Positions 2,362 through 20,311 of a stretch of 20,311 nucleotides of DNA are shown here, piece after piece (positions within the stretch are counted from its first letter, which is position 1; each line of letters opens with the position of its first letter). A model generated the notes under the pieces. It was not told the origin of the DNA and ran no database searches. It saw nothing but the letters and a program-made list of their open reading frames with translations. The translations under genes were made by a program, and so were the position numbers. The stretch lies in assembly GCF_003334335.1 (NCBI RefSeq), contig NZ_QOWQ01000053.1, one strand, 5' to 3'. The DNA comes from Escherichia coli (GTDB lineage: Bacteria > Pseudomonadota > Gammaproteobacteria > Enterobacterales > Enterobacteriaceae).

Positions 2362-5300
2362 ATGGACAAGGAATTACCGTGGCTGGCGGATAACGCCCAA
2401 CTGGAACTGAAATATAAAAAAGGCAAAACACCACTCAGTCATCGCAAATGGCCGGGCGAACCGGTGCCTGTTATCACTGAAAGCATCATTCAGACACTGG
2501 GTGATAAATTGCTACAAAAAGCTGAGAAGAAAAAAAACATTGTCTGGCGTTATGAAAATTTTTCACTGGAGTGGCAGTCCGCCATCACGCAGGCCATCAA
2601 CTTGATCGGCGAACACAAACCCTCAATCCCGGCCCGGACAATGGCGGCGCTAGTCTGTATCGCGCAAAATGACAGCCAACAGTTGCTCGACGAAATCGTC
2701 CAACAAGAGGGACTGGAATATGCGACTGAGGTGGTGATTGCACGCCAGTTTATTACACGATGTTATGAGAGTGATCCTCTGCTAGTGACATTGCAGTATC
2801 AGGACGAGGATTATGGCTATGGTTATCGCTCAGAAACCTATAACGAATTCGATCTCCGACTGCGTAAGCATCTCTCTCTGGCAGAGGAAAGCAGCTGGCA
2901 GCGTTGCGCCGACAAACTCATTGCCGCACTGCCAGGAATACCCAAAATTCGCCGTCCTTTTATTGCACTACTCCTCCCGGAAAAACCTGAAATAGCCAAT
3001 GAACTCGCCAGTCTTGAAAGCTCCCGGTCAAGTCTCCATTCAAAGGAGTGGTTAAAGGTCATTGCTACTGATAATACGGCGGTAAAAAAACTCGAACGAT
3101 ACTGGGGCCTGGACGTATTTAGCGATCGCGAAGCCAGCTACATGTCACAAGAAAACCGCTTCGGCTACGCGGCCTGCGCCTCCCTTTTGCGCGAACAAGG
3201 ACTGGCAGCCGTTCCGCGCCTGGCAATGTATGCCCATAAAGAAGATTGCGGCAGTCTGCTGGTACAAATTAACCATCCGCAAGTCATCCGCACCTTGCTA
3301 CTGGTGGCTGATAAAAACAAACCCAGCCTGCAACGTGTGGCTAAATACAGTAAAAACTTCCCCCACGCGACGCTCGCCGCACTGGCAGAACTGCTGGCGT
3401 TAAAAGAACCACCAGCCCGCCCAGGTTATCCAATCATCGAAGACAAAAAGCTGCCTGCACAGCAAAAAGCACGCGATGAATACTGGCGTACGCTGTTACA
3501 AACGCTGATGGCATCGCAGCCACAACTGGCAGCAGAAGTGATGCCGTGGTTAAGTACTCAAGCCAGGGCAGTGCTGAATAGTTATTTATCGGCACCGCCA
3601 AAACCGGTTATTGATAGCACCGATAACAGCAGTCTGCCTGAAATGCTCGTTTCACCACCGTGGCGTAGTAAGAAAAAAATGACAGCTCCACGTCTTGATT
3701 TGGCACCGCTCGAATTAACTCCGCAAATTTACTGGCAACCAGGCGAACAAGAGAGGCTTGCCGCCACTGAATCTGCCCGTTATTTCAGCACGGAATCTCT
3801 TGCGGAACGCATGGAACAAAAAAGTGGACGAGTTGTATTACAGGAACTGGGTTTTGGGGATGATGTATGGCTGTTTCTGAATTATATACTCCCCGGAAAA
3901 CTGGATGCTGCACGCAATTCACTCATTGTTCAGTGGCATTACTACCAGGGGCGGGTTGAAGAGATCCTGAATGGCTGGAACTCCCCGCAAGCACAATTAG
4001 CAGAACAGGCGCTCCGCAGCGGTCACATAGAAGCGTTAATTAACATATGGGAAAATGACAACTTCTCACGTTATCGTCCGGAAAAGAGTGTCTGGAACCT
4101 GTATTTATTGGCACAGTTGCCGCGTGAGATGGCTTTGACCTTCTGGCTGCGTATCATTGAGAAAAAGCATCTGTTCGCGGGTGAGGACTATTTTCTCAGT
4201 ATCCTCGGATTGGATGCGCTACCAGGTCTGCTGTTGGCTTTTTCACATCGTCCAAAAGAAACATTTCCGTTAATTTTAAATTTTGGCGCAACAGAACTGG
4301 CGCTGCCTGTTGCCCGCGTCTGGCGACGTTTCGCGGCGCAGCGTGATCTGGCTCGCCAGTGGATTTTACAATGGCCGGAACATACGGCTAGTGCACTTAT
4401 CCCTCTTGTCTTTACCAAACCCAGCGATAATAGCGAAGCCGCATTACTTGCCCTGCGTTTACTGTACGAACAGGGACATGGCGAATTGCTACAAACCGTG
4501 GCAAACCGCTGGCAGCGTACAGATGTATGGTCTGCCCTGGAGCAGTTGCTTAAACAGGGTCCAATGGACATTTACCCGGCACGCATTCCAAAAGCCCCTG
4601 ATTTCTGGCATCCGGCAATGTGGTCCAGGCCTCGACTTATCACTAATAATCAGCCTGTTACCGGTGACGCTCTGGAAATTATCGGCGAAATGCTGCGCTT
4701 TACCCAGGGGGGACGTTTTTATAGCGGGCTGGAACAACTGAAAACGTTCTGCCAGCCACAAACGCTGGCAGCTTTTGCCTGGGATCTCTTCACTGCGTGG
4801 CAACAAGCTGGTGCCCCCGCAAAAGACAACTGGGCATTTCTGGCGTTAAGTCTCTTTGGTGACGAAAGCACGGCACGGGATCTGACGACACAGATCCTCG
4901 CCTGGCCACAAGAAGGCAAATCTGCCCGTGCTGTCAGCGGCCTGAACATCCTTACCCTGATGAATAATGATATGGCGCTGATACAGCTGCATCATATATC
5001 GCAACGGGCTAAATCCCGCCCCTTACGTGATAACGCGGCGGAATTTCTTCAGGTGGTCGCAGAAAATCGCGGGCTAAGCCAGGAAGAGCTAGCGGACAGA
5101 TTAGTCCCAACCCTGGGCCTTGATGATCCGCAGGCGTTGAGTTTTGATTTTGGTCCCCGGCAGTTTACCGTTCGCTTCGATGAAAACCTCAACCCGGTTA
5201 TCTTTGATCAGCAAAACGTTCGCCAGAAAAGCGTTCCCCGGTTGCGCGCCGATGACGATCAACTGAAAGCGCCCGAGGCACTGGCCCGACTAAAAGGGCT

Positions 5301-5985
5301 AAAAAAAGATGCTACTCAGGTGAGCAAAAACCTGCTCCCGCGTCTTGAAGCTGCCCTACGTACCACCCGACGCTGGTCGCTGGCAGATTTTCATTCTCTG
5401 TTTGTTAATCATCCCTTTACCCGTCTGGTTACCCAGCGATTAATATGGGTGGTTTATCCGGCAAATGAACCGCGTTGTTTACTCAAAGCCTTTCGTGTGG
5501 CCGCAGAGGGGGAGTTCTGCAATGCGCAAGATGAGCCAATTGACCTGCCTGCGGACGCTCTGATTGGCATTGCCCACCCGTTAGAAATGACAGTAGAAAT
5601 GCGCAGTGAATTTGCACAGCTTTTTGCCGATTACGAAATTATGCCGCCTTTTCGCCAGTTGTCGCGCCGCACGGTGCTGCTCACACCTGACGAGTCAACC
5701 AGTAACAGCCTGACTCGCTGGGAAGGTAAATCCGCTACCGTTGGGCAGCTTATGGGAATGCGATACAAAGGCTGGGAGTCAGGCTATGAGGACGCATTTG
5801 TGGGCGAGTACCGGCTGGTCCTTAAGTTTTCACCCGGTTTTAACCACTACAATGTTGATAGCAAAGCGTTAATGAGCTTCCGTTCTCTTCGAGTGTACCG
5901 TGACAATAAATCCGTCACTTTTGCCGAACTTGATGTGTTTGATTTGAGTGAGGTGTTAAGCGCACCTGACGTCATTTTCCATTAA
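2362..5985 (+). CDS. yehI: YehI, 1207-aa DUF4132-family protein of unknown function
   Basis: A long uninterrupted ORF. ATG 2362 lies 9 nt after the upstream stop and is preceded by AAGGAAAGAG. Length and sequence match my memory of E. coli YehI (~1210 aa). The C-terminal two thirds are paralogous to the ORF at 127..2352. Confidence 0.93.
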   Translation: MDKELPWLADNAQLELKYKKGKTPLSHRKWPGEPVPVITESIIQTLGDKLLQKAEKKKNIVWRYENFSLEWQSAITQAINLIGEHKPSIPARTMAALVCIAQNDSQQLLDEIVQQEGLEYATEVVIARQFITRCYESDPLLVTLQYQDEDYGYGYRSETYNEFDLRLRKHLSLAEESSWQRCADKLIAALPGIPKIRRPFIALLLPEKPEIANELASLESSRSSLHSKEWLKVIATDNTAVKKLERYWGLDVFSDREASYMSQENRFGYAACASLLREQGLAAVPRLAMYAHKEDCGSLLVQINHPQVIRTLLLVADKNKPSLQRVAKYSKNFPHATLAALAELLALKEPPARPGYPIIEDKKLPAQQKARDEYWRTLLQTLMASQPQLAAEVMPWLSTQARAVLNSYLSAPPKPVIDSTDNSSLPEMLVSPPWRSKKKMTAPRLDLAPLELTPQIYWQPGEQERLAATESARYFSTESLAERMEQKSGRVVLQELGFGDDVWLFLNYILPGKLDAARNSLIVQWHYYQGRVEEILNGWNSPQAQLAEQALRSGHIEALINIWENDNFSRYRPEKSVWNLYLLAQLPREMALTFWLRIIEKKHLFAGEDYFLSILGLDALPGLLLAFSHRPKETFPLILNFGATELALPVARVWRRFAAQRDLARQWILQWPEHTASALIPLVFTKPSDNSEAALLALRLLYEQGHGELLQTVANRWQRTDVWSALEQLLKQGPMDIYPARIPKAPDFWHPAMWSRPRLITNNQPVTGDALEIIGEMLRFTQGGRFYSGLEQLKTFCQPQTLAAFAWDLFTAWQQAGAPAKDNWAFLALSLFGDESTARDLTTQILAWPQEGKSARAVSGLNILTLMNNDMALIQLHHISQRAKSRPLRDNAAEFLQVVAENRGLSQEELADRLVPTLGLDDPQALSFDFGPRQFTVRFDENLNPVIFDQQNVRQKSVPRLRADDDQLKAPEALARLKGLKKDATQVSKNLLPRLEAALRTTRRWSLADFHSLFVNHPFTRLVTQRLIWVVYPANEPRCLLKAFRVAAEGEFCNAQDEPIDLPADALIGIAHPLEMTVEMRSEFAQLFADYEIMPPFRQLSRRTVLLTPDESTSNSLTRWEGKSATVGQLMGMRYKGWESGYEDAFVGEYRLVLKFSPGFNHYNVDSKALMSFRSLRVYRDNKSVTFAELDVFDLSEVLSAPDVIFH

Positions 5986-5991
5986 AAACAC

Positions 5992-6017
5992 AGCGGGCAG
6001 TGATGCAACTGCCCGTT
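5992..6017 (+). other. Intergenic stem-loop between yehI and yehK
   Basis: cgggcagt (5994-6001) pairs perfectly with actgcccg (6008-6015) around a 6-nt loop gatgca, and is extendable by A-T/G-T pairs. Only a weak T-tract follows (ttatcaac), so it is at best a partial terminator or an RNA-stability element. Confidence 0.35.
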
Positions 6018-6046
6018 ATCAACACGACTTACCAGCGGGGAAAGCG

Positions 6047-6364
6047 ATGATCGTGCAAAAAGAGCTGGTTGCTATTTACGATTATGAGGTCCCTGTACCT
6101 GAAAATCCGTTTTCCTTCAGACTTGAGATCAATAAATGCTCTGAATTATTTACAGGTTCCGTCTATCGACTGGAGCGATTCCGGCTACGTCCAACATTTC
6201 ATCAACGTGATCGAGAAGATGCTGACCCGCTAATAAATGATGCGTTGATTTATATAAGAGATGAGTGTATTGATGAGCGGAAATTACGAGGTGAATCACC
6301 TGAAACTGTAATAGCAATTTTTAATCGTGAACTACAGAATATATTCAACCAAGAAATAGAATAA
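6047..6364 (+). CDS. yehK: YehK, 105-aa protein of unknown function
   Basis: ATG 6047 is preceded by GGGGAAAG. The 105-aa length matches E. coli YehK as I remember it. The gene is visibly AT-richer than its neighbours. Confidence 0.85.
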   Translation: MIVQKELVAIYDYEVPVPENPFSFRLEINKCSELFTGSVYRLERFRLRPTFHQRDREDADPLINDALIYIRDECIDERKLRGESPETVIAIFNRELQNIFNQEIE

Positions 6365-6441
6365 TATACTCTAAATAATTCAAATTGGTCCGATCCGGCG
6401 CAACGTCCCAATGGCCTGGATTATAAATCTCATTATCTTAA

Positions 6442-6470
6442 TTGCAACGGGGTCCAGCCGTGGTTATAAT
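6442..6470 (+). promoter_or_regulatory. Near-consensus sigma70 promoter (TTGCAA-17 nt-TATAAT)
   Basis: -35 ttgcaa at 6442-6447, an exact 17-nt spacer at 6448-6464, and a perfect -10 tataat at 6465-6470. It lies in the yehK-yehL intergenic region. Predicted TSS is about 6477. Confidence 0.45.
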
Positions 6471-6476
6471 TCGTTC

Positions 6477-6559
6477 GTTGGAACACGATGTTGCACAGGC
6501 TGCGGTGTTGGGCCTGAAAATAGTAAATAAAAGAACCTGCCTCACCAGCAGGTTTTTTT
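6477..6559 (+). ncRNA. Candidate ~80-nt small RNA, or terminated leader of the yehL operon
   Basis: Bounded by the promoter at 6442-6470 and the intrinsic terminator at 6534-6559. It contains a stem-loop caggc/gcctg (6496-6516), then an A/U-rich stretch aaaatagtaaataaaag, then the terminator with a U7 tail. It holds no ORF beyond 9 codons. Confidence 0.3.
6534..6559 (+). terminator. Rho-independent terminator
   Basis: aacctgc (6534-6540), loop ctcacca, gcaggtt (6548-6554), running into T7 (6553-6559). An A-rich tract upstream (aaataaaag) makes it potentially bidirectional. Confidence 0.75.
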
Positions 6560-6670
6560 ATTTACTGTGATCTGCTTTCCAGATATTTTCCGCTCAAACA
6601 ACTAATGCGCCAAACATTTATTGCGCGTAAAATATCGTTTATTTCATTAATACATTTCAGGGATGAATAT

Positions 6671-7759
6671 ATGTCACCGCAGAATAATCATCTGCAGCGT
6701 CCGCCTGCTGCTGTGTTATACGCCGATGAACTGGCAAAATTAAAACAAAATGATAACGCACCTTGCCCGCCCGGTTGGCAGTTAAGTTTGCCTGCGGCCC
6801 GTGCTTTTATCCTTGGCGATAGCGCGCAAAATATTAGCCGTAAAGTGGTGATTAGTCCCTCCGCTGTCGAACGCATGTTAGTCACTCTTGCCACCGGGCG
6901 CGGTTTGATGTTGGTGGGGGAACCTGGCACCGCAAAATCTCTCCTGTCTGAATTACTGGCAACCGCTATTAGCGGCGATGCCGGGTTAACCATCCAGGGC
7001 GGCGCATCTACTACCGAAGATCAAATCAAGTACGGCTGGAACTACGCCCTGCTTATCAATCATGGTCCATCAACGGAAGCGCTGGTCCCTGCCCCGCTTT
7101 ACCAGGGAATGCGCGACGGCAAAATCGTCCGTTTTGAAGAGATAACGCGTACACCGCTGGAAGTGCAAGACTGTCTGTTAGGTATGCTTTCTGACAGGGT
7201 GATGACGGTGCCGGAACTCACTGGTGAAGCCAGTCAGCTCTATGCGCGAGAAGGCTTTAATATTATTGCCACTGCCAATACCCGCGATCGCGGCGTCAAT
7301 GAAATGAGTGCTGCGCTAAAGCGTCGCTTCGATTTTGAAACTGTCTTTCCGATTATGGATTTCGCCCAGGAGCTGGAGCTTGTCGCCAGTGCTTCGGCGC
7401 GTTTGCTGGCCCATAGCGGTATTCCGCATAAAGTGCCTGACGCGGTACTGGAGTTACTGGTCCGCACCTTCCGCGATCTGCGTGCCAACGGCGAAAAGAA
7501 AACGTCAATGGATACACTAACAGCGATTATGTCCACCGCTGAAGCCGTGAACGTGGCCCACGCCGTAGGCGTCCGCGCCTGGTTTTTAGCGAATCGCGCA
7601 GGTGAGCCAGCCGACCTGGTGGACTGCATTGCCGGAACCATCGTCAAAGATAACGAAGAAGATCGCGCTCGTCTGCGCCGTTACTTCGAACAACGAGTCG
7701 CCACACATAAAGAAGCTCACTGGCAGGCTTATTATCAAGCCCGCCACCGCCTGCCGTGA
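6671..7759 (+). CDS. yehL: YehL, MoxR-class AAA+ ATPase (362 aa)
   Basis: ATG 6671 with AGGGA upstream gives the 362 aa I remember for K-12 YehL, whereas the track ORF starts at 6605. Walker A GEPGTAKS is at 6917-6940 and a Walker-B-like VRFEEI lies downstream. Size and layout fit a single-AAA MoxR protein. Confidence 0.93.
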   Translation: MSPQNNHLQRPPAAVLYADELAKLKQNDNAPCPPGWQLSLPAARAFILGDSAQNISRKVVISPSAVERMLVTLATGRGLMLVGEPGTAKSLLSELLATAISGDAGLTIQGGASTTEDQIKYGWNYALLINHGPSTEALVPAPLYQGMRDGKIVRFEEITRTPLEVQDCLLGMLSDRVMTVPELTGEASQLYAREGFNIIATANTRDRGVNEMSAALKRRFDFETVFPIMDFAQELELVASASARLLAHSGIPHKVPDAVLELLVRTFRDLRANGEKKTSMDTLTAIMSTAEAVNVAHAVGVRAWFLANRAGEPADLVDCIAGTIVKDNEEDRARLRRYFEQRVATHKEAHWQAYYQARHRLP

Positions 7760-16944: not shown

Positions 16945-17013
16945 ATGGCGCTTTACACAATTGGTGAAGTGGCGTTGCTTTGTGATATTAACCCTGTCAC
17001 GTTACGCGCGTGA
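16945..17013 (+). pseudogene. mlrA: 5' fragment of mlrA (yehV), the MerR-family activator of csgD, truncated after codon 22
   Basis: It reads MALYTIGEVALLCDINPVTLRA then TGA, whereas MlrA continues WQRRYGLLKPQ. Nothing downstream in any frame continues MlrA. The truncation falls inside the N-terminal HTH. Confidence 0.85.
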
Positions 17014-17030
17014 CGCAACATTTTTAAAAA

Positions 17031-17110
17031 TCGACGAAGATCGTCCAGGAGCGCCGTTTTTCAAGGGTTGGATAGATGATTCGTTTACCATGTCGACGAA
17101 CTTCGACGAA
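17031..17110. repeat. Three copies of TCGACGAA, two of them 10 bp apart
   Basis: tcgacgaa occurs at 17031-17038, 17093-17100 and 17103-17110, followed by a degenerate ttcgccga. gacga/tcgtc forms a small inverted repeat at 17033-17045. The palindrome T5A5 at 17021-17030 lies just after the junction. Confidence 0.6.
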
Positions 17111-17136
17111 TTTCGCCGATAAAAAGTGTCCCATAC

Positions 17137-17156
17137 ATGCCCCATTGATGCCCCAT
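17137..17156. repeat. Tandem ATGCCCCAT x2 with 11-bp register
   Basis: atgccccat occurs at 17137-17145 and 17148-17156. Confidence 0.6.
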
Positions 17157-17171
17157 AAACAATATCAGGAA

Positions 17172-17201
17172 TTGACACTGGTTATCCATACAGACAAAAA
17201 T
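17172..17201 (+). promoter_or_regulatory. Candidate promoter of the dinI-like gene (TTGACA-18 nt-AAAAAT)
   Basis: A perfect -35 ttgaca at 17172-17177 and a weak -10 aaaaat at 17196-17201. The predicted TSS falls inside the LexA box. Confidence 0.35.
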
Positions 17202-17206
17202 AACAC

Positions 17207-17222
17207 CTGTACATAACCACAG
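17207..17222 (+). promoter_or_regulatory. LexA (SOS) box CTG-N10-CAG
   Basis: acCTGtacataaccaCAGtt has the CTGT-N8-ACAG core. It lies 16 nt upstream of the dinI-like ATG and resembles the chromosomal dinI operator as I remember it (ACCTGTATAAATAACCAGTA). Confidence 0.6.
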
Positions 17223-17237
17223 TTACAGGAGGGTGTT

Positions 17238-17486
17238 ATGCGTGTTGAGATCTGTATCGCTAAAGAAAAAATCAGCAAAATGCCAAAAGGTTCTGTTTCT
17301 GCCCTGCAGCAAGAAATGCTTCGACGTGTCAGTAAACGTTATGACGATGTGGACGTGATTGTCAGAGCCGCCAACAATGACAGTCTCACCATTTTAAGAG
17401 CTGTAGATAAAGAATCCGCGCACGAATTTGTTCAGGAAACACTGCAGGAAGCCTGGGAAACCGCTGACGACTGGTTTATTCGGTAA
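17238..17486 (+). CDS. DinI-family protein (82 aa), prophage-encoded
   Basis: AGGAGGG lies 5 nt upstream of the ATG. It aligns with E. coli DinI (MR.E..IAK at the N-terminus; [12 protein letters not shown] against LQETWESADDWF at the C-terminus). Confidence 0.88.
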
Positions 17487-17497
17487 ATCTTCTTTAC

Positions 17498-17524
17498 GGG
17501 GAGTTAACTTACTCCCCATTTTTT
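17498..17524 (+). terminator. Rho-independent terminator of the dinI-like gene
   Basis: ggggagt (17498-17504), loop taactt, actcccc (17511-17517), then A+T6. The T-tract overlaps the stop codon of the convergent small ORF. Confidence 0.8.
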
Positions 17525-17651
17525 ATTGCATGATAATTGCAGCAACGGCACAGAGTGTCACCACACCACCCAGCCACACAAACAGCATGAAGCACATTGC
17601 TCCCGCTGTATAACGTTTTCTCCCGTACATACGGCATTTGTCTTTATTCAT
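17523..17651 (-). CDS. Candidate 42-aa single-pass membrane peptide
   Basis: MNKDKCRMYGRKRYTAGAMCFMLFVWLGGVVTLCAVAAIIMQ has a basic N-terminus followed by a ~24-residue hydrophobic helix. AGGGG lies 6 nt upstream of this ATG, and a second ATG sits one codon upstream at 17654. The ORF lies 46 nt downstream of the LuxR-type gene on the same strand. I recognise no family. Confidence 0.3.
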   Translation of the reverse strand: MNKDKCRMYGRKRYTAGAMCFMLFVWLGGVVTLCAVAAIIMQ

Positions 17652-17700
17652 CATCTGCCCCTGAATCACATGAAGACGCTGCAGGTCCGGTAACACTGAA

Positions 17701-18174
17701 TCACTCCGCACACGCAAGATGTTTCACGCTCACACCATACAGCCCGTTTTTCGCCATTCCCGTATACAGAAAGGTATTCACCGTCTTCGTGTGAATGCCC
17801 ATTTCACTGGCAAGGCGACAGGGTCTCGACTGGCGGTAGACGTAGCCAAACATCACCACCATCTCTGACATCGTCAGCGGACGGGCAACGCTGTTATACG
17901 TCCATACACCATTGCGTATGGCATCACTTATCTGCTCACCATCACGGAGTGATTCCGCACCCAGTTGCAGAAAATGCCGTCCCTGGAACATGCAGCGCAT
18001 CAGTCTGCCCAGCAACGTATCACAGATTATCAGCCAGGATTCGTCAAAGTCCGGGATATAACGGCGGTTCTCCGGCAGGAAAAACTCCCTCGCCAGTATC
18101 ACACTGTGTTCCTTCAGTAACGCCTGCAGACCATACTCCAGATAGCGATTCCTGGTAGCCAGAATCACCTTCAT
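17701..18174 (-). CDS. Small LuxR/GerE-type HTH regulator with a degenerate receiver-like N-terminus (157 aa)
   Basis: The C-terminus LTMSEMVVMF...RLASEMGIHTKTVNTFLYTGMAKNGL fits the LuxR/FixJ HTH pattern (LT..E..V......iA.elgIs.kTV..h...i..KLg.). The N-terminus MKVILATRNRY lacks the acidic DD pocket. ATG 18174 has GGAAGG 7 nt upstream, whereas the track start at 18204 has no SD. Confidence 0.75.
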   Translation of the reverse strand: MKVILATRNRYLEYGLQALLKEHSVILAREFFLPENRRYIPDFDESWLIICDTLLGRLMRCMFQGRHFLQLGAESLRDGEQISDAIRNGVWTYNSVARPLTMSEMVVMFGYVYRQSRPCRLASEMGIHTKTVNTFLYTGMAKNGLYGVSVKHLACAE

Positions 18175-18209
18175 CGCAGCACCTTCCTGTTTTTTATGCC
18201 CCATGAAAA

Positions 18210-18238
18210 ACGGCAGACCAGAGTCCTGCGCCTGCCGT
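18210..18238 (-). terminator. Weak terminator/attenuator after the adhesin gene
   Basis: On the - strand acggcag (18238-18232) pairs with ctgccgt (18216-18210) around a 15-nt loop, followed by only TTTT. It sits directly upstream of the LuxR-type gene, so read-through is likely. Confidence 0.35.
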
Positions 18239-18262
18239 CATGCTTCATGTCACTGTCAGCAA

Positions 18263-19336
18263 TTAAAACTCGAAGTTCACACCTACGTTGTAGGAAACAT
18301 CACCGTCGCTGGCCGCAATACCTGCTTTGGCTGCGGTCTGCTCGTTGAAGCGGTAACCCACACCAACAGCCACAGCCTGTTTGTCACTGTAACCACCCAG
18401 GGCTGCCGTGGCGTTGAATTTACCCACACTGTACGGCTGGAACAGACCGGACAGCGCCGCACTCTGTGCTGCCGCACGTTTCATTTCTTCGTGGTTTTCA
18501 CGAATCTGGCGCTGCTGGCTGTTCAGGCGTGCGTTATGCTCCTGCAGCTGGCGGGAGTGATTCTGGATAGCCTGGGTGTTACTGCGGGTTCTGTTGTCGA
18601 GGCTGACAACAGCATCATTCACACGAACGTTGCCCGGTGCGCTCTGGTCAAGTGTATAGCTGCCATCTTTATTCTGATAAATTGTTGTATCTGCTTTCAC
18701 ACCCGCAACAACGCTCTTCACAGATACACTTTCAACACCCTGTCCATCAGTAATTTCACCATTCTCATCAAGGGCAAATGTAGTGGCATTTTTCAGGTCA
18801 TTTACATTTGTGCCGAGACGGTTGAACTCATTCAGTAACCCACCTGTCGAATCCTGTTTAACAGCAGCCAGAGCTGACTCAACACTAACACCGTTGTTAA
18901 TGGCTGTGTTATAAGCCCTTGCTGTTTTTGTTGTAATGGTTTCTGAAACAATATCGATGGTTTCTTTTAGTTTATTTAGTTTTTCCTCTGTTATATTTCC
19001 AATGTTTTCTTTTTTTAGTTCTGGTGCATCAATAGTGTAACGAACAGACTCCAGAAGTGATTGAACCTTATCCTTGTTTTTTATATCATTTACATTTATA
19101 CCATTTACTTTTTTCTTCCACTCATCTCTATTAAACGTTGTAATAGTTCCTGTGACCGTGTTAGCAATAATTCCTTCGCCATTTTTATTTACAATTTTAG
19201 CCATATCACCGTTATTATAAAACTCAACTCTGAAATCACCTCTTGTAAAATTCTCCTGCGCTATAGCACCACCACTCACCAACAACAGACCGGCAACAGC
19301 AGATGAAAGAATAGTCTTTGTAAATTTCTTGCTCAT
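18263..19336 (-). CDS. Trimeric autotransporter adhesin with YadA-type C-terminal anchor, Eib-like (357 aa)
   Basis: The Sec signal peptide [26 protein letters not shown]|QE is followed by a Q/N/R-rich coiled-coil stalk ([37 protein letters not shown]). The C-terminal 4-strand anchor is [63 protein letters not shown], ending in aromatic F. From memory this anchor is very close to the prophage-borne Eib proteins. Confidence 0.9.
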
Positions 19337-19353
19337 GTGGTATACCCTATAAA

Positions 19354-19382
19354 ATTATCTGTATACAAATAAAACAGTTCAA
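19354..19382 (-). promoter_or_regulatory. Candidate sigma70 promoter of the adhesin gene (TTGAAC-17 nt-GATAAT)
   Basis: On the - strand the -35 is ttgaac (19382-19377), the spacer is 17 nt, and the -10 is gataat (19359-19354). The palindrome TGTATACA (19360-19367) lies in the spacer. The ATG is about 18-25 nt downstream of the predicted TSS. Confidence 0.45.
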
Positions 19383-19439
19383 CATCGGATATATAAAGAA
19401 AATCTGATGTCTCGCCGCTCTCATGAGCTTACTCCTGAA

Positions 19440-19477
19440 GAAATTCCGAATTTTAATATGAAGTTTTTCGGAATTTC
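19440..19477. repeat. Perfect 11-bp inverted repeat GAAATTCCGAA / TTCGGAATTTC with a 16-nt spacer
   Basis: The arms are at 19440-19450 and 19467-19477. The repeat lies about 60-100 bp upstream of the adhesin promoter candidate. Confidence 0.75.
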
Positions 19478-19712
19478 CTTACTATAACGTCGGTGATATC
19501 ACGTCCGCGAAGGGGTATCCGCATTACGACTGGCCTGCCACTTATGCTGTCTCTTTATTCATCAACAATTTGTATACGGTTACATCTTTAATTGTGAAGT
19601 TAGTCACAAAAAGAAGAAAGTCAAATAATCAAATTGTGCTTAACTGTTTACATCAGCACAATCTGATAACCATTGAAGGACGCACTAAATTATTTTCAGC
19701 AATCCCTCAGCC

Positions 19713-19729
19713 TACGAAAATTCTGTATT
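19713..19729. repeat. Copy 1 of the exact 17-mer TACGAAAATTCTGTATT
   Basis: It is identical to 19889-19905, which lies 176 bp away. Confidence 0.85.
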
Positions 19730-19882
19730 TGATGATTGTTTTATTTGCTCTCTTTTTATGCAGCCATTCTGTTGCTTATAAAAAAGCACCACTATCTCAT
19801 GTATAATTTCTGGGTCTGTCGTCTCCCCGTTTTTCACTTACAGATGCCGGGCAACATTCAGTTGCCGGAATCAGCAGTTACC

Positions 19883-19909
19883 ATGCAATACGAAAATTCT
19901 GTATTGCAT
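19883..19909. repeat. Copy 2 of the 17-mer, embedded in the perfect 9-bp inverted repeat ATGCAATAC / GTATTGCAT
   Basis: The 17-mer is at 19889-19905. The inverted-repeat arms are at 19883-19891 and 19901-19909 around a 9-nt loop gaaaattct. Confidence 0.85.
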
Positions 19910-19977
19910 CCACGCCCTCATCTCAATATCTTTGTCGCCGGATAAAAATAACTATCAACCACAAGTATCATGCTCTC

Positions 19978-20003
19978 GGGGAGCACGCACTCCCCAGTTT
20001 TTT
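19978..20003 (+). terminator. Rho-independent terminator, + orientation
   Basis: ggggag (19978-19983), loop cacgca, ctcccc (19990-19995), then ag and T6 (19998-20003). On the - strand no T-tract follows the hairpin. Confidence 0.75.
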
Positions 20004-20106
20004 ATCTTTGACAGGGGTGAAGGAGGCCGTTGCATCTCCTTTAATTATCATTGCCAGATTATTTCCTCGACCTGAGTATTCTTTATTTAGCCATAGTTTT
20101 GTAGCA

Positions 20107-20132
20107 AGGGGCTGGAGCGCCCCTCTTTTTTT
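20107..20132 (+). terminator. Rho-independent terminator, + orientation, abutting the stop of the convergent phage gene
   Basis: aggggc (20107-20112), loop tggagc, gcccct (20119-20124), then c and T7 (20126-20132). The last T is part of the - strand stop codon (20132-20134). Confidence 0.7.
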
Positions 20133-20311
20133 CACCTGTCAGCCATGCCGACCTTATACGCCAGTATAGCTTCCGCATCACCCAGCGCTTCAATCTCTTT
20201 TTTCATCGTGCGCTGTCTGACATGAATTTCCAGACCTTTGGTAAACATCGCCTGCTCTGCAGCAGCACTCAGAGCAATCAGTGTTTCAGCGTCCATCGGT
20301 ACGTCATTATT
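20132..20311 (-). CDS. 3' end (59 codons) of a phage gene truncated by the window edge, possibly a tail-fibre-region protein with a DUF4376-like C-terminus
   Basis: The - strand frame is open to the window edge: ...NNDVPMDAETLIALSAAAEQAMFTKGLEIHVRQRTMKKEIEALGDAEAILAYKVGMADR*. The pattern resembles C-terminal domains I associate with phage tail-fibre accessory proteins. That assignment is from memory only. Confidence 0.55.
   Translation of the reverse strand, partial: NNDVPMDAETLIALSAAAEQAMFTKGLEIHVRQRTMKKEIEALGDAEAILAYKVGMADR

Follow-up and report, generated by a model that had tools for sequence, protein, structure and literature searches.

What is the short promoter-terminator unit located between yehK and yehL in this Escherichia coli strain, and does it regulate the genes downstream of it? 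We analyzed a stretch of 20,311 nucleotides (hereafter the window), in which yehK (ORF 6047..6364, + strand) and yehL (ORF 6672..7759, + strand) are separated by a spacer of 307 bp (6365-6671). The original prediction, made from the sequence, offered two readings of the unit within this spacer. According to the first one, it is a free-standing small RNA gene with the architecture usual for Hfq-dependent RNAs; according to the second one, it is a transcription-attenuating leader of the yehLMPQ operon. Under either reading the unit was expected to be the regulatory input to an uncharacterized system.

The window shares 97.6% identity with MG1655 over 17 kb and thus represents a non-K-12 strain. 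The homology to MG1655 ends 68 nt into mlrA (yehV), and the final 3.3 kb of the window (17013-20311) match the end of Escherichia phage PhiR5_1 with 100% identity. This segment includes a DinI-like ORF (17238-17486, + strand) and a YadA-anchor, Eib-like ORF (18263-19336, - strand). The segment appears to belong to a lambdoid prophage inserted into mlrA.

The promoter of the unit, TTGCAA-17-TATAAT (6442..6470, + strand), matches the sigma-70 consensus at 10 of 12 positions in our promoter scan. This is the joint top score across the first 20 kb; just two other sites reach it, one being its mirror-image counterpart on the - strand and the other lying within the prophage segment. The description of this promoter as near-consensus and among the best in the window was therefore accurate. 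As a class, sigma-70-like sites show no enrichment in the window (11 observed vs 19 expected from shuffled sequences), and thus the hexamers alone are not beyond chance. Both hexamers are unchanged in all eight aligned copies of orz, the gene family described below, which come from three Escherichia species. We infer a transcription start near 6477 from the promoter geometry (the spacing from the -10 hexamer), from the RNA size of about 85 nt and from the position at which complementarity to zorP begins.

The RNA that would start at about 6477 is predicted to fold into a weak 5' hairpin, stem-loop 1, an unpaired A/U-rich stretch and a terminator hairpin. Stem-loop 1 (6496..6516, + strand) has a 6-bp stem, CAGGCU / GGCCUG, and a 9-nt loop. 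It is followed by an A/U-rich single-stranded linker (6517..6533, + strand), which is nearly invariant across the family. The stem-loop and the A/U-rich stretch had both been proposed originally, and both appear in the MFE and centroid folds. The 85-nt RNA as a whole is more stable than its shuffled versions (z = -2.5; four of 200 shuffles were equally stable).

The intrinsic terminator occupies positions 6529..6560 (+ strand). Its core stem (6534-6554) is AACCUGC/GCAGGUU, i.e., 6534-6540 paired with 6548-6554 around a 7-nt loop; the flanking A-U pairs lengthen the stem to 12-13 bp, and the U7 tract covers 6553-6559. The hairpin folds at -13.8 kcal/mol with a pairing probability of 1.0 and is unchanged in the eight aligned copies. 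The strong terminator that had been described at 6534-6559, with a 7-bp GC stem and seven U residues, is present. The yehL start codon was found at 6672, at the predicted distance of 112 nt 3' of position 6559. Being a palindrome flanked by A and U tracts, the element resembles a terminator in either direction; its - strand version folds at -22.2 kcal/mol. Our terminator scan reports the 6534-6554 hairpin on the - strand only. In our reading, the scan misses the + strand version because greedy extension of the stem swallows the U tract.

Three elements by which transcription attenuators are commonly recognized were also considered and rejected. When the nascent RNA was folded up to, but not including, the 3' arm of the terminator, the 5' arm remained unpaired and no competing antiterminator structure appeared. 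A candidate leader peptide, encoded by a 9-codon ORF starting at 6488, is not conserved, as it becomes 36 codons in orzO. Known Rfam leader families scored far below their cut-offs, with 26.3 vs 55 bits for Thr_leader and 21.7 vs 41 bits for the Trp leader; the Phe and Leu leaders were also far under.

The identity of the unit follows from a different Rfam family. A scan of the region 5900-6900 produced a single match above threshold, to RF02083 (OrzO-P antitoxin) at 6484-6559 on the + strand. The match scores 101.3 bits (E 2e-17), with a gathering score of 60 bits, and extends over model positions 1-76 of 76. This full-length match puts the promoter-terminator unit far beyond chance. The sub-threshold Rfam matches in the same region involve the terminator alone.

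OrzO and OrzP are small RNA antitoxins of the tandem zorO-orzO and zorP-orzP pairs of E. coli O157:H7, located between yehI/yehK and yehL (Fozo 2010; Wen 2013). The 5' end of OrzO pairs with a region of the zorO 5' UTR called “exposed after processing” (EAP), which is needed for robust translation, and OrzO is able to inhibit zorO translation. Repression of zorO by OrzO requires RNase III and is equally effective in an hfq deletion strain (Wen 2013). OrzP represses zorO only after its V1 triplet has been swapped (Wen 2013).

The RNA encoded in the window has the features of OrzP rather than OrzO. Its antisense seed (6477..6496, + strand) is identical at 19 of 20 positions to the + strand DNA of the O157 zorP 5' UTR (L001 2930-2949; L001 is the O157:H7 sequence used here). 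As zorP lies on the opposite strand, the OrzP RNA is complementary to zorP mRNA. The pairing site is situated about 83-102 nt (+83 to +102) from the zorP mRNA start, which is the published pairing region. The specificity triplet V1, as defined by Wen 2013, belongs to the seed; it is ACG in the window (6485-6487), which is the OrzP type, vs GAA in OrzO. The score above the family threshold, the seed complementarity including V1 and the position between yehK and yehL, divergent from a zor promoter, all characterize a member of RF02083. We conclude that the unit upstream of yehL is very probably orzP, the RNA antitoxin gene of the ZorP/OrzP type I pair, in an orphan (“orz-only”) state. The predicted OrzP RNA is about 84 nt long (6477..6560, + strand) and is of the “OrzPmg” type known from MG1655, from which it differs in two loop bases; this assignment draws on RF02083, the northern signal of about 85 nt in O157 and the MG1655 Term-seq data. 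Both the family and the orphan configuration have been described previously, so the feature is already known.

The orphan state is evident from the alignment with O157:H7. The yehK-yehL spacer of O157:H7 (L001) is 1240 bp long vs 307 bp in the window. It includes two RF02083 matches, orzO (2494-2567) and orzP (3103-3178), and, on the opposite strand, two 29-codon ORFs, ZorO (2159-2248) and ZorP (2768-2857). The window follows O157 from yehK to L001 position 2068 and picks up again at 2998; about 930 bp, with zorO, orzO and zorP, are gone. The deletion junction (6379..6383) has a microhomology of a few bases, with five bases common to both alignments. No ZorO or ZorP toxin ORF was detected in the whole window (tblastn, best E 0.1), and a search of both strands of the window with up to three mismatches revealed no second copy of the OrzP seed sequence. 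Since the pairing site sits within the deleted segment, OrzP has no cognate target in cis. Thus the locus is not a complete type I toxin-antitoxin system: the window has neither the ORF of the 29-aa hydrophobic toxin nor the target site of the antitoxin.

The zorP promoter has survived the deletion. This promoter, TTGCAA-16-TATAAT (6420..6447, - strand, 10/12 in the promoter scan), is intact and aligns to the zorP promoter of O157. Downstream of it there is a remnant of the zorP 5' UTR of about 30 nt (6381..6412, - strand, start near 6412), which includes neither the site for pairing with Orz nor the toxin ORF. Its length agrees with the 27-29 nt of zor 5' UTR that are kept in published orz-only strains (PMC11264685). 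Counted from the inferred zorP start, the deletion ends after about 29-34 nt, near the published processing site at which the zorO 5' UTR is shortened by its first 28 nt; this closeness may be a coincidence. The -35 hexamer TTGCAA (6442-6447) reads the same on both strands, and in all eight aligned copies the orzP promoter and the divergent zorP promoter share it. The common -35 hexamer suggests that the two promoters compete for RNA polymerase. The surviving zorP promoter, if active, would direct antisense transcription through yehK (6364-6047) up to a terminator-like hairpin of the - strand at 6015-5994. No Term-seq 3' end for such antisense yehK RNA is listed nearby in MG1655.

Evidence for the transcript comes from two other strains. 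Orz RNAs of about 85 nt were detected on northern blots of O157:H7 EDL933 (Fozo 2010). MG1655 was said in earlier papers, including Fozo 2010, to be without the zor-orz locus. Its orphan copy, OrzPmg, is northern-blot positive, and the signal is lost in a deletion strain (mSystems 9:e01204-23, PMC11264685); the deletion takes out the promoter. A possible transcript at the OrzPmg site was also noted in published dRNA-seq data (PMC11264685).

The Term-seq data of Adams et al. 2021 (eLife, PMC7815308) contain three + strand 3' ends of MG1655 here, all of the “orphan” class. The MG1655 coordinate equals the window coordinate plus 2,197,925. The ends are 2204485 (window 6560; LB, OD 2.0), 2204446 (window 6521; LB, OD 0.4) and 2204445 (window 6520; M63 glucose). 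The assignment to LB at OD 0.4 is firm, as this is the sole sheet with Rho scores, and the other two conditions were taken from the sheet order in the caption. Position 6560 is the base right after the U7 tract, so that the 3' end anticipated near 6559 does exist in MG1655; positions 6520 and 6521 are just past stem-loop 1, within the A/U-rich linker. The 6521 end was scored as not Rho-dependent. The read counts of the 3' ends are low (about 1000-2300), and the read coverage flanking the site is very low (20 and 37 reads in the Term-seq tables of PMC7815308). No other Term-seq 3' ends are listed for MG1655 within several hundred bases on either strand. The end at the terminator, 6560, is listed for OD 2.0 only, and the ends from growing cells (LB at OD 0.4 and M63) are those at 6520/6521. 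Growing MG1655 may contain OrzP mainly as a 5' fragment of about 44 nt that includes the seed. By analogy with EDL933 and MG1655, strains other than that of the window, from which the blots and 3' ends were obtained, OrzP is probably expressed here as an RNA of about 85 nt. With RF02083 and the Term-seq and northern data of MG1655, the first of the two predicted readings proves right: the independent small RNA of about 80 nt, bounded by a promoter and a terminator of its own, is the product of the OrzP gene.

The closest described relative is OrzPmg of MG1655 (PMC11264685). It has the same yehK-yehL spacer (306-307 bp) with the same deletion junction, promoters, seed, linker and terminator. 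The two spacers are identical at 304 of 307 positions: at the equivalents of 6503 and 6510 MG1655 has T and A vs C and G in the window, and one further base differs, at 6590. OrzP of O157:H7 EDL933 likewise has a full RF02083 match, an identical seed with ACG as V1, divergent promoters with a common -35 hexamer and yehL as a neighbor. Unlike the window, EDL933 has zorP, the pairing site and the zorO-orzO pair, all of which the window has lost. Judging from the literature, an intact zor-orz pair has the same design as the type I pairs IstR-1/tisB and OhsC/shoB: the small RNA is divergent from the toxin gene, and about 20 nt of it are complementary to the long 5' UTR of the toxin mRNA. Unlike the orphan OrzP, these antitoxins are normally found beside their toxins: two antitoxin-only strains are known for shoB/ohsC vs about 30% for orz (PMC11264685).

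The orphan state is common in the species. The 84-nt OrzP sequence was matched in 5223 of 5426 complete E. coli genomes. The orphan deletion junction, searched with a 90-nt query across the junction at full coverage, was found in 1853 of the same 5426 genomes (34%). According to the published survey, about 30% of 2212 E. coli assemblies are orz-only, and the copy is orzP-like in 96% of those (PMC11264685). We also found complete zor-orz pairs in two other Escherichia lineages. E. whittamii (L006 4957-5980) has two pairs between yehK and yehL; Escherichia sp. MOD1-EC7003 (L005 125-538) has one pair beside yehK at the contig end, with yehL beyond view. The presence of the pairs in these two lineages suggests that the two-pair state is older and that the orphan was derived from it by deletion. 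These pairs lie outside E. coli, in contrast to Wen 2013, where the zor-orz locus is limited to E. coli and Shigella; E. fergusonii had already been noted earlier (Fozo 2010). E. coli WP2-S18-ESBL-08 (L007 4001-4807) has an IS1 68 bp after yehK, with yehR directly next to it; both orz and the whole yehLMPQ operon are absent from it.

The small RNA is missing from the annotation of the genome records listed in our searches. The RefSeq record of MG1655 has no feature between yehK and yehL (L002 9291-9596). The listed E. coli records that match the 84-nt query have no annotated feature beneath the match, and those that match the whole spacer have only yehL or a hypothetical protein. The RNA is present in Rfam and in the literature and is unannotated in these records, which is presumably why the unit looked new from its sequence alone.

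Allelic variation of the RNA is small. The loop of stem-loop 1 has C6503 and G6510 in the window vs T and A in both MG1655 and O157. The C/G combination is also found in copy 2 of E. whittamii, and Escherichia sp. MOD1 has the intermediate T/G. The substitutions are energetically neutral: all four base combinations fold alike. A compensatory change at these positions was considered and rejected, as both bases are in the predicted loop, the variants fold alike and the T/G intermediate exists; there is no covariation signal. Among eight orz-only haplotypes, a small sample with little power, three sites vary in the 84-nt RNA vs seven in 223 nt of flank. The seed, the promoter hexamers and the linker are unchanged in the same eight haplotypes. 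The orphan copy of the E. coli B strain C3029 (L010) has the substitution G6552T, by which the terminator stem loses the pair C6536-G6552.

The identification as orzP leaves the question of what an antitoxin without its toxin could do. The broadest answer is that OrzP has a toxin-independent role, either acting on other mRNAs via its intact 20-nt seed or supplying the yehLMPQ operon with low transcription limited by read-through. We regard such a role as unlikely. Constitutive read-through from orzP or yehK could add to the very low transcription of yehL. This contribution is possible because the region 6561-6671, ahead of the yehL start codon, has no sigma-70-like promoter better than 8/12.

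A more specific version, in which orphan OrzP is an Hfq-dependent trans-acting small RNA that has gained, or always had, further mRNA targets, possibly yehL, appears improbable. The terminator has a long U tail behind an A/U-rich stretch, the gene is kept without the toxin in about a third of E. coli and is expressed in MG1655, and the authors of the 2024 study raised a toxin-independent role themselves (PMC11264685). The architecture noted in the original prediction is thus real in that the U tail and the A/U-rich site are present; they are not specific to Hfq, and the proposed dependence on Hfq is not supported, given that OrzO works in an hfq deletion strain and is independent of Hfq (Wen 2013). 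Pairing of the seed with the yehL leader also argues against a target there. The best duplex has an energy of -18.4 kcal/mol, equaled or exceeded by 55 of 300 shuffles, i.e., there is no excess complementarity. When the seed was compared with all 171-nt tiles of the window, nothing rose above the shuffles except the antisense strand of the seed itself. yehK and yehL are unmentioned in the supplements of a paper predicting small RNAs from RIL-seq data, and we found no RIL-seq or ProQ evidence for OrzP in the published supplements searched. Among the eight orz-only haplotypes, the RNA is no more conserved than the sequence on either side of it, and the terminator-stem mismatch G6552T of E. coli B points in the same direction.

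About equally improbable is an immunity (“anti-addiction”) function, for which the orphan would be kept to silence a zorP arriving by recombination or on a plasmid. It is in line with this idea that OrzP of zorP-bearing strains has exactly this seed and that a few plasmid-borne zor/orz copies exist: four plasmid places are among the matches of our spacer search, and one plasmid-borne copy has been reported (PMC11264685). Plasmid copies are, however, very rare, and the sequences of the eight orphan haplotypes bear no sign of selection.

Still less probable is that the hairpin mainly terminates, or insulates from, the yehI-yehK transcript and that the promoter match is incidental. Between the stop codon of yehK (6364) and position 6534 the + strand has no further terminator-like site, and Term-seq 3' ends are silent on where a transcript began. 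Against this, the promoter hexamers are unchanged in all orz copies of the three Escherichia species, and northern blots show a discrete RNA of about 85 nt, which disappears when MG1655 carries a deletion that takes out the promoter. An insulator role is compatible with the small RNA gene and is no replacement for it.

The attenuating leader, in which the promoter at 6442 would drive yehLMPQ and the terminator would be a regulated premature stop setting operon expression, is the least credible reading: the best sigma-70 match between the terminator and the yehL ATG is just 8/12 and Adams et al. place 3' ends 111-151 nt upstream of yehL as candidate 5'-UTR ends (PMC7815308), but there is no alternative to a terminator that pairs with probability 1.0, no conserved leader peptide, no leader motif, very few reads on both sides of the site (the 20 and 37 given above) and no constant link to the downstream gene. 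The last point comes from the orzO unit, which shares the promoter hexamers with orzP and is identical to it in the 3' half and the terminator, and which precedes the opposite-strand zorP rather than yehL in both O157:H7 and E. whittamii. The proposed attenuation of yehLMPQ is therefore not supported. The same applies to the more general claim of a regulatory input to this operon, as shuffled sequences are matched by the seed about as well as the yehL leader and no antiterminator fold was found.

Returning to orphan OrzP, we suggest the following picture. The strain of the window would make the RNA from the promoter at 6442-6470, with a start near 6477 and a 3' end formed by the terminator at about 6560. 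It is likely that this strain also has the shorter RNA of growing MG1655, with its 3' end near 6520. OrzP would have no cognate target in cis; the window displays 20 kb of the genome, and a zor copy or another target may be present elsewhere. Most likely OrzP is a still-expressed relic of the deletion. This is favored by the numbers of variable sites (3/84 vs 7/223, a comparison of low power) and by the stem mismatch in E. coli B. At most, OrzP could silence a re-acquired zorP, and it is probably not a dedicated regulator of yehLMPQ.

The promoter-terminator unit thus drops out as a candidate regulatory input to the uncharacterized yehLMPQ system and belongs to a known family. The question of the orphan antitoxin, with one third of E. 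coli having lost the toxin, has already been posed in print by the group that described it (PMC11264685).
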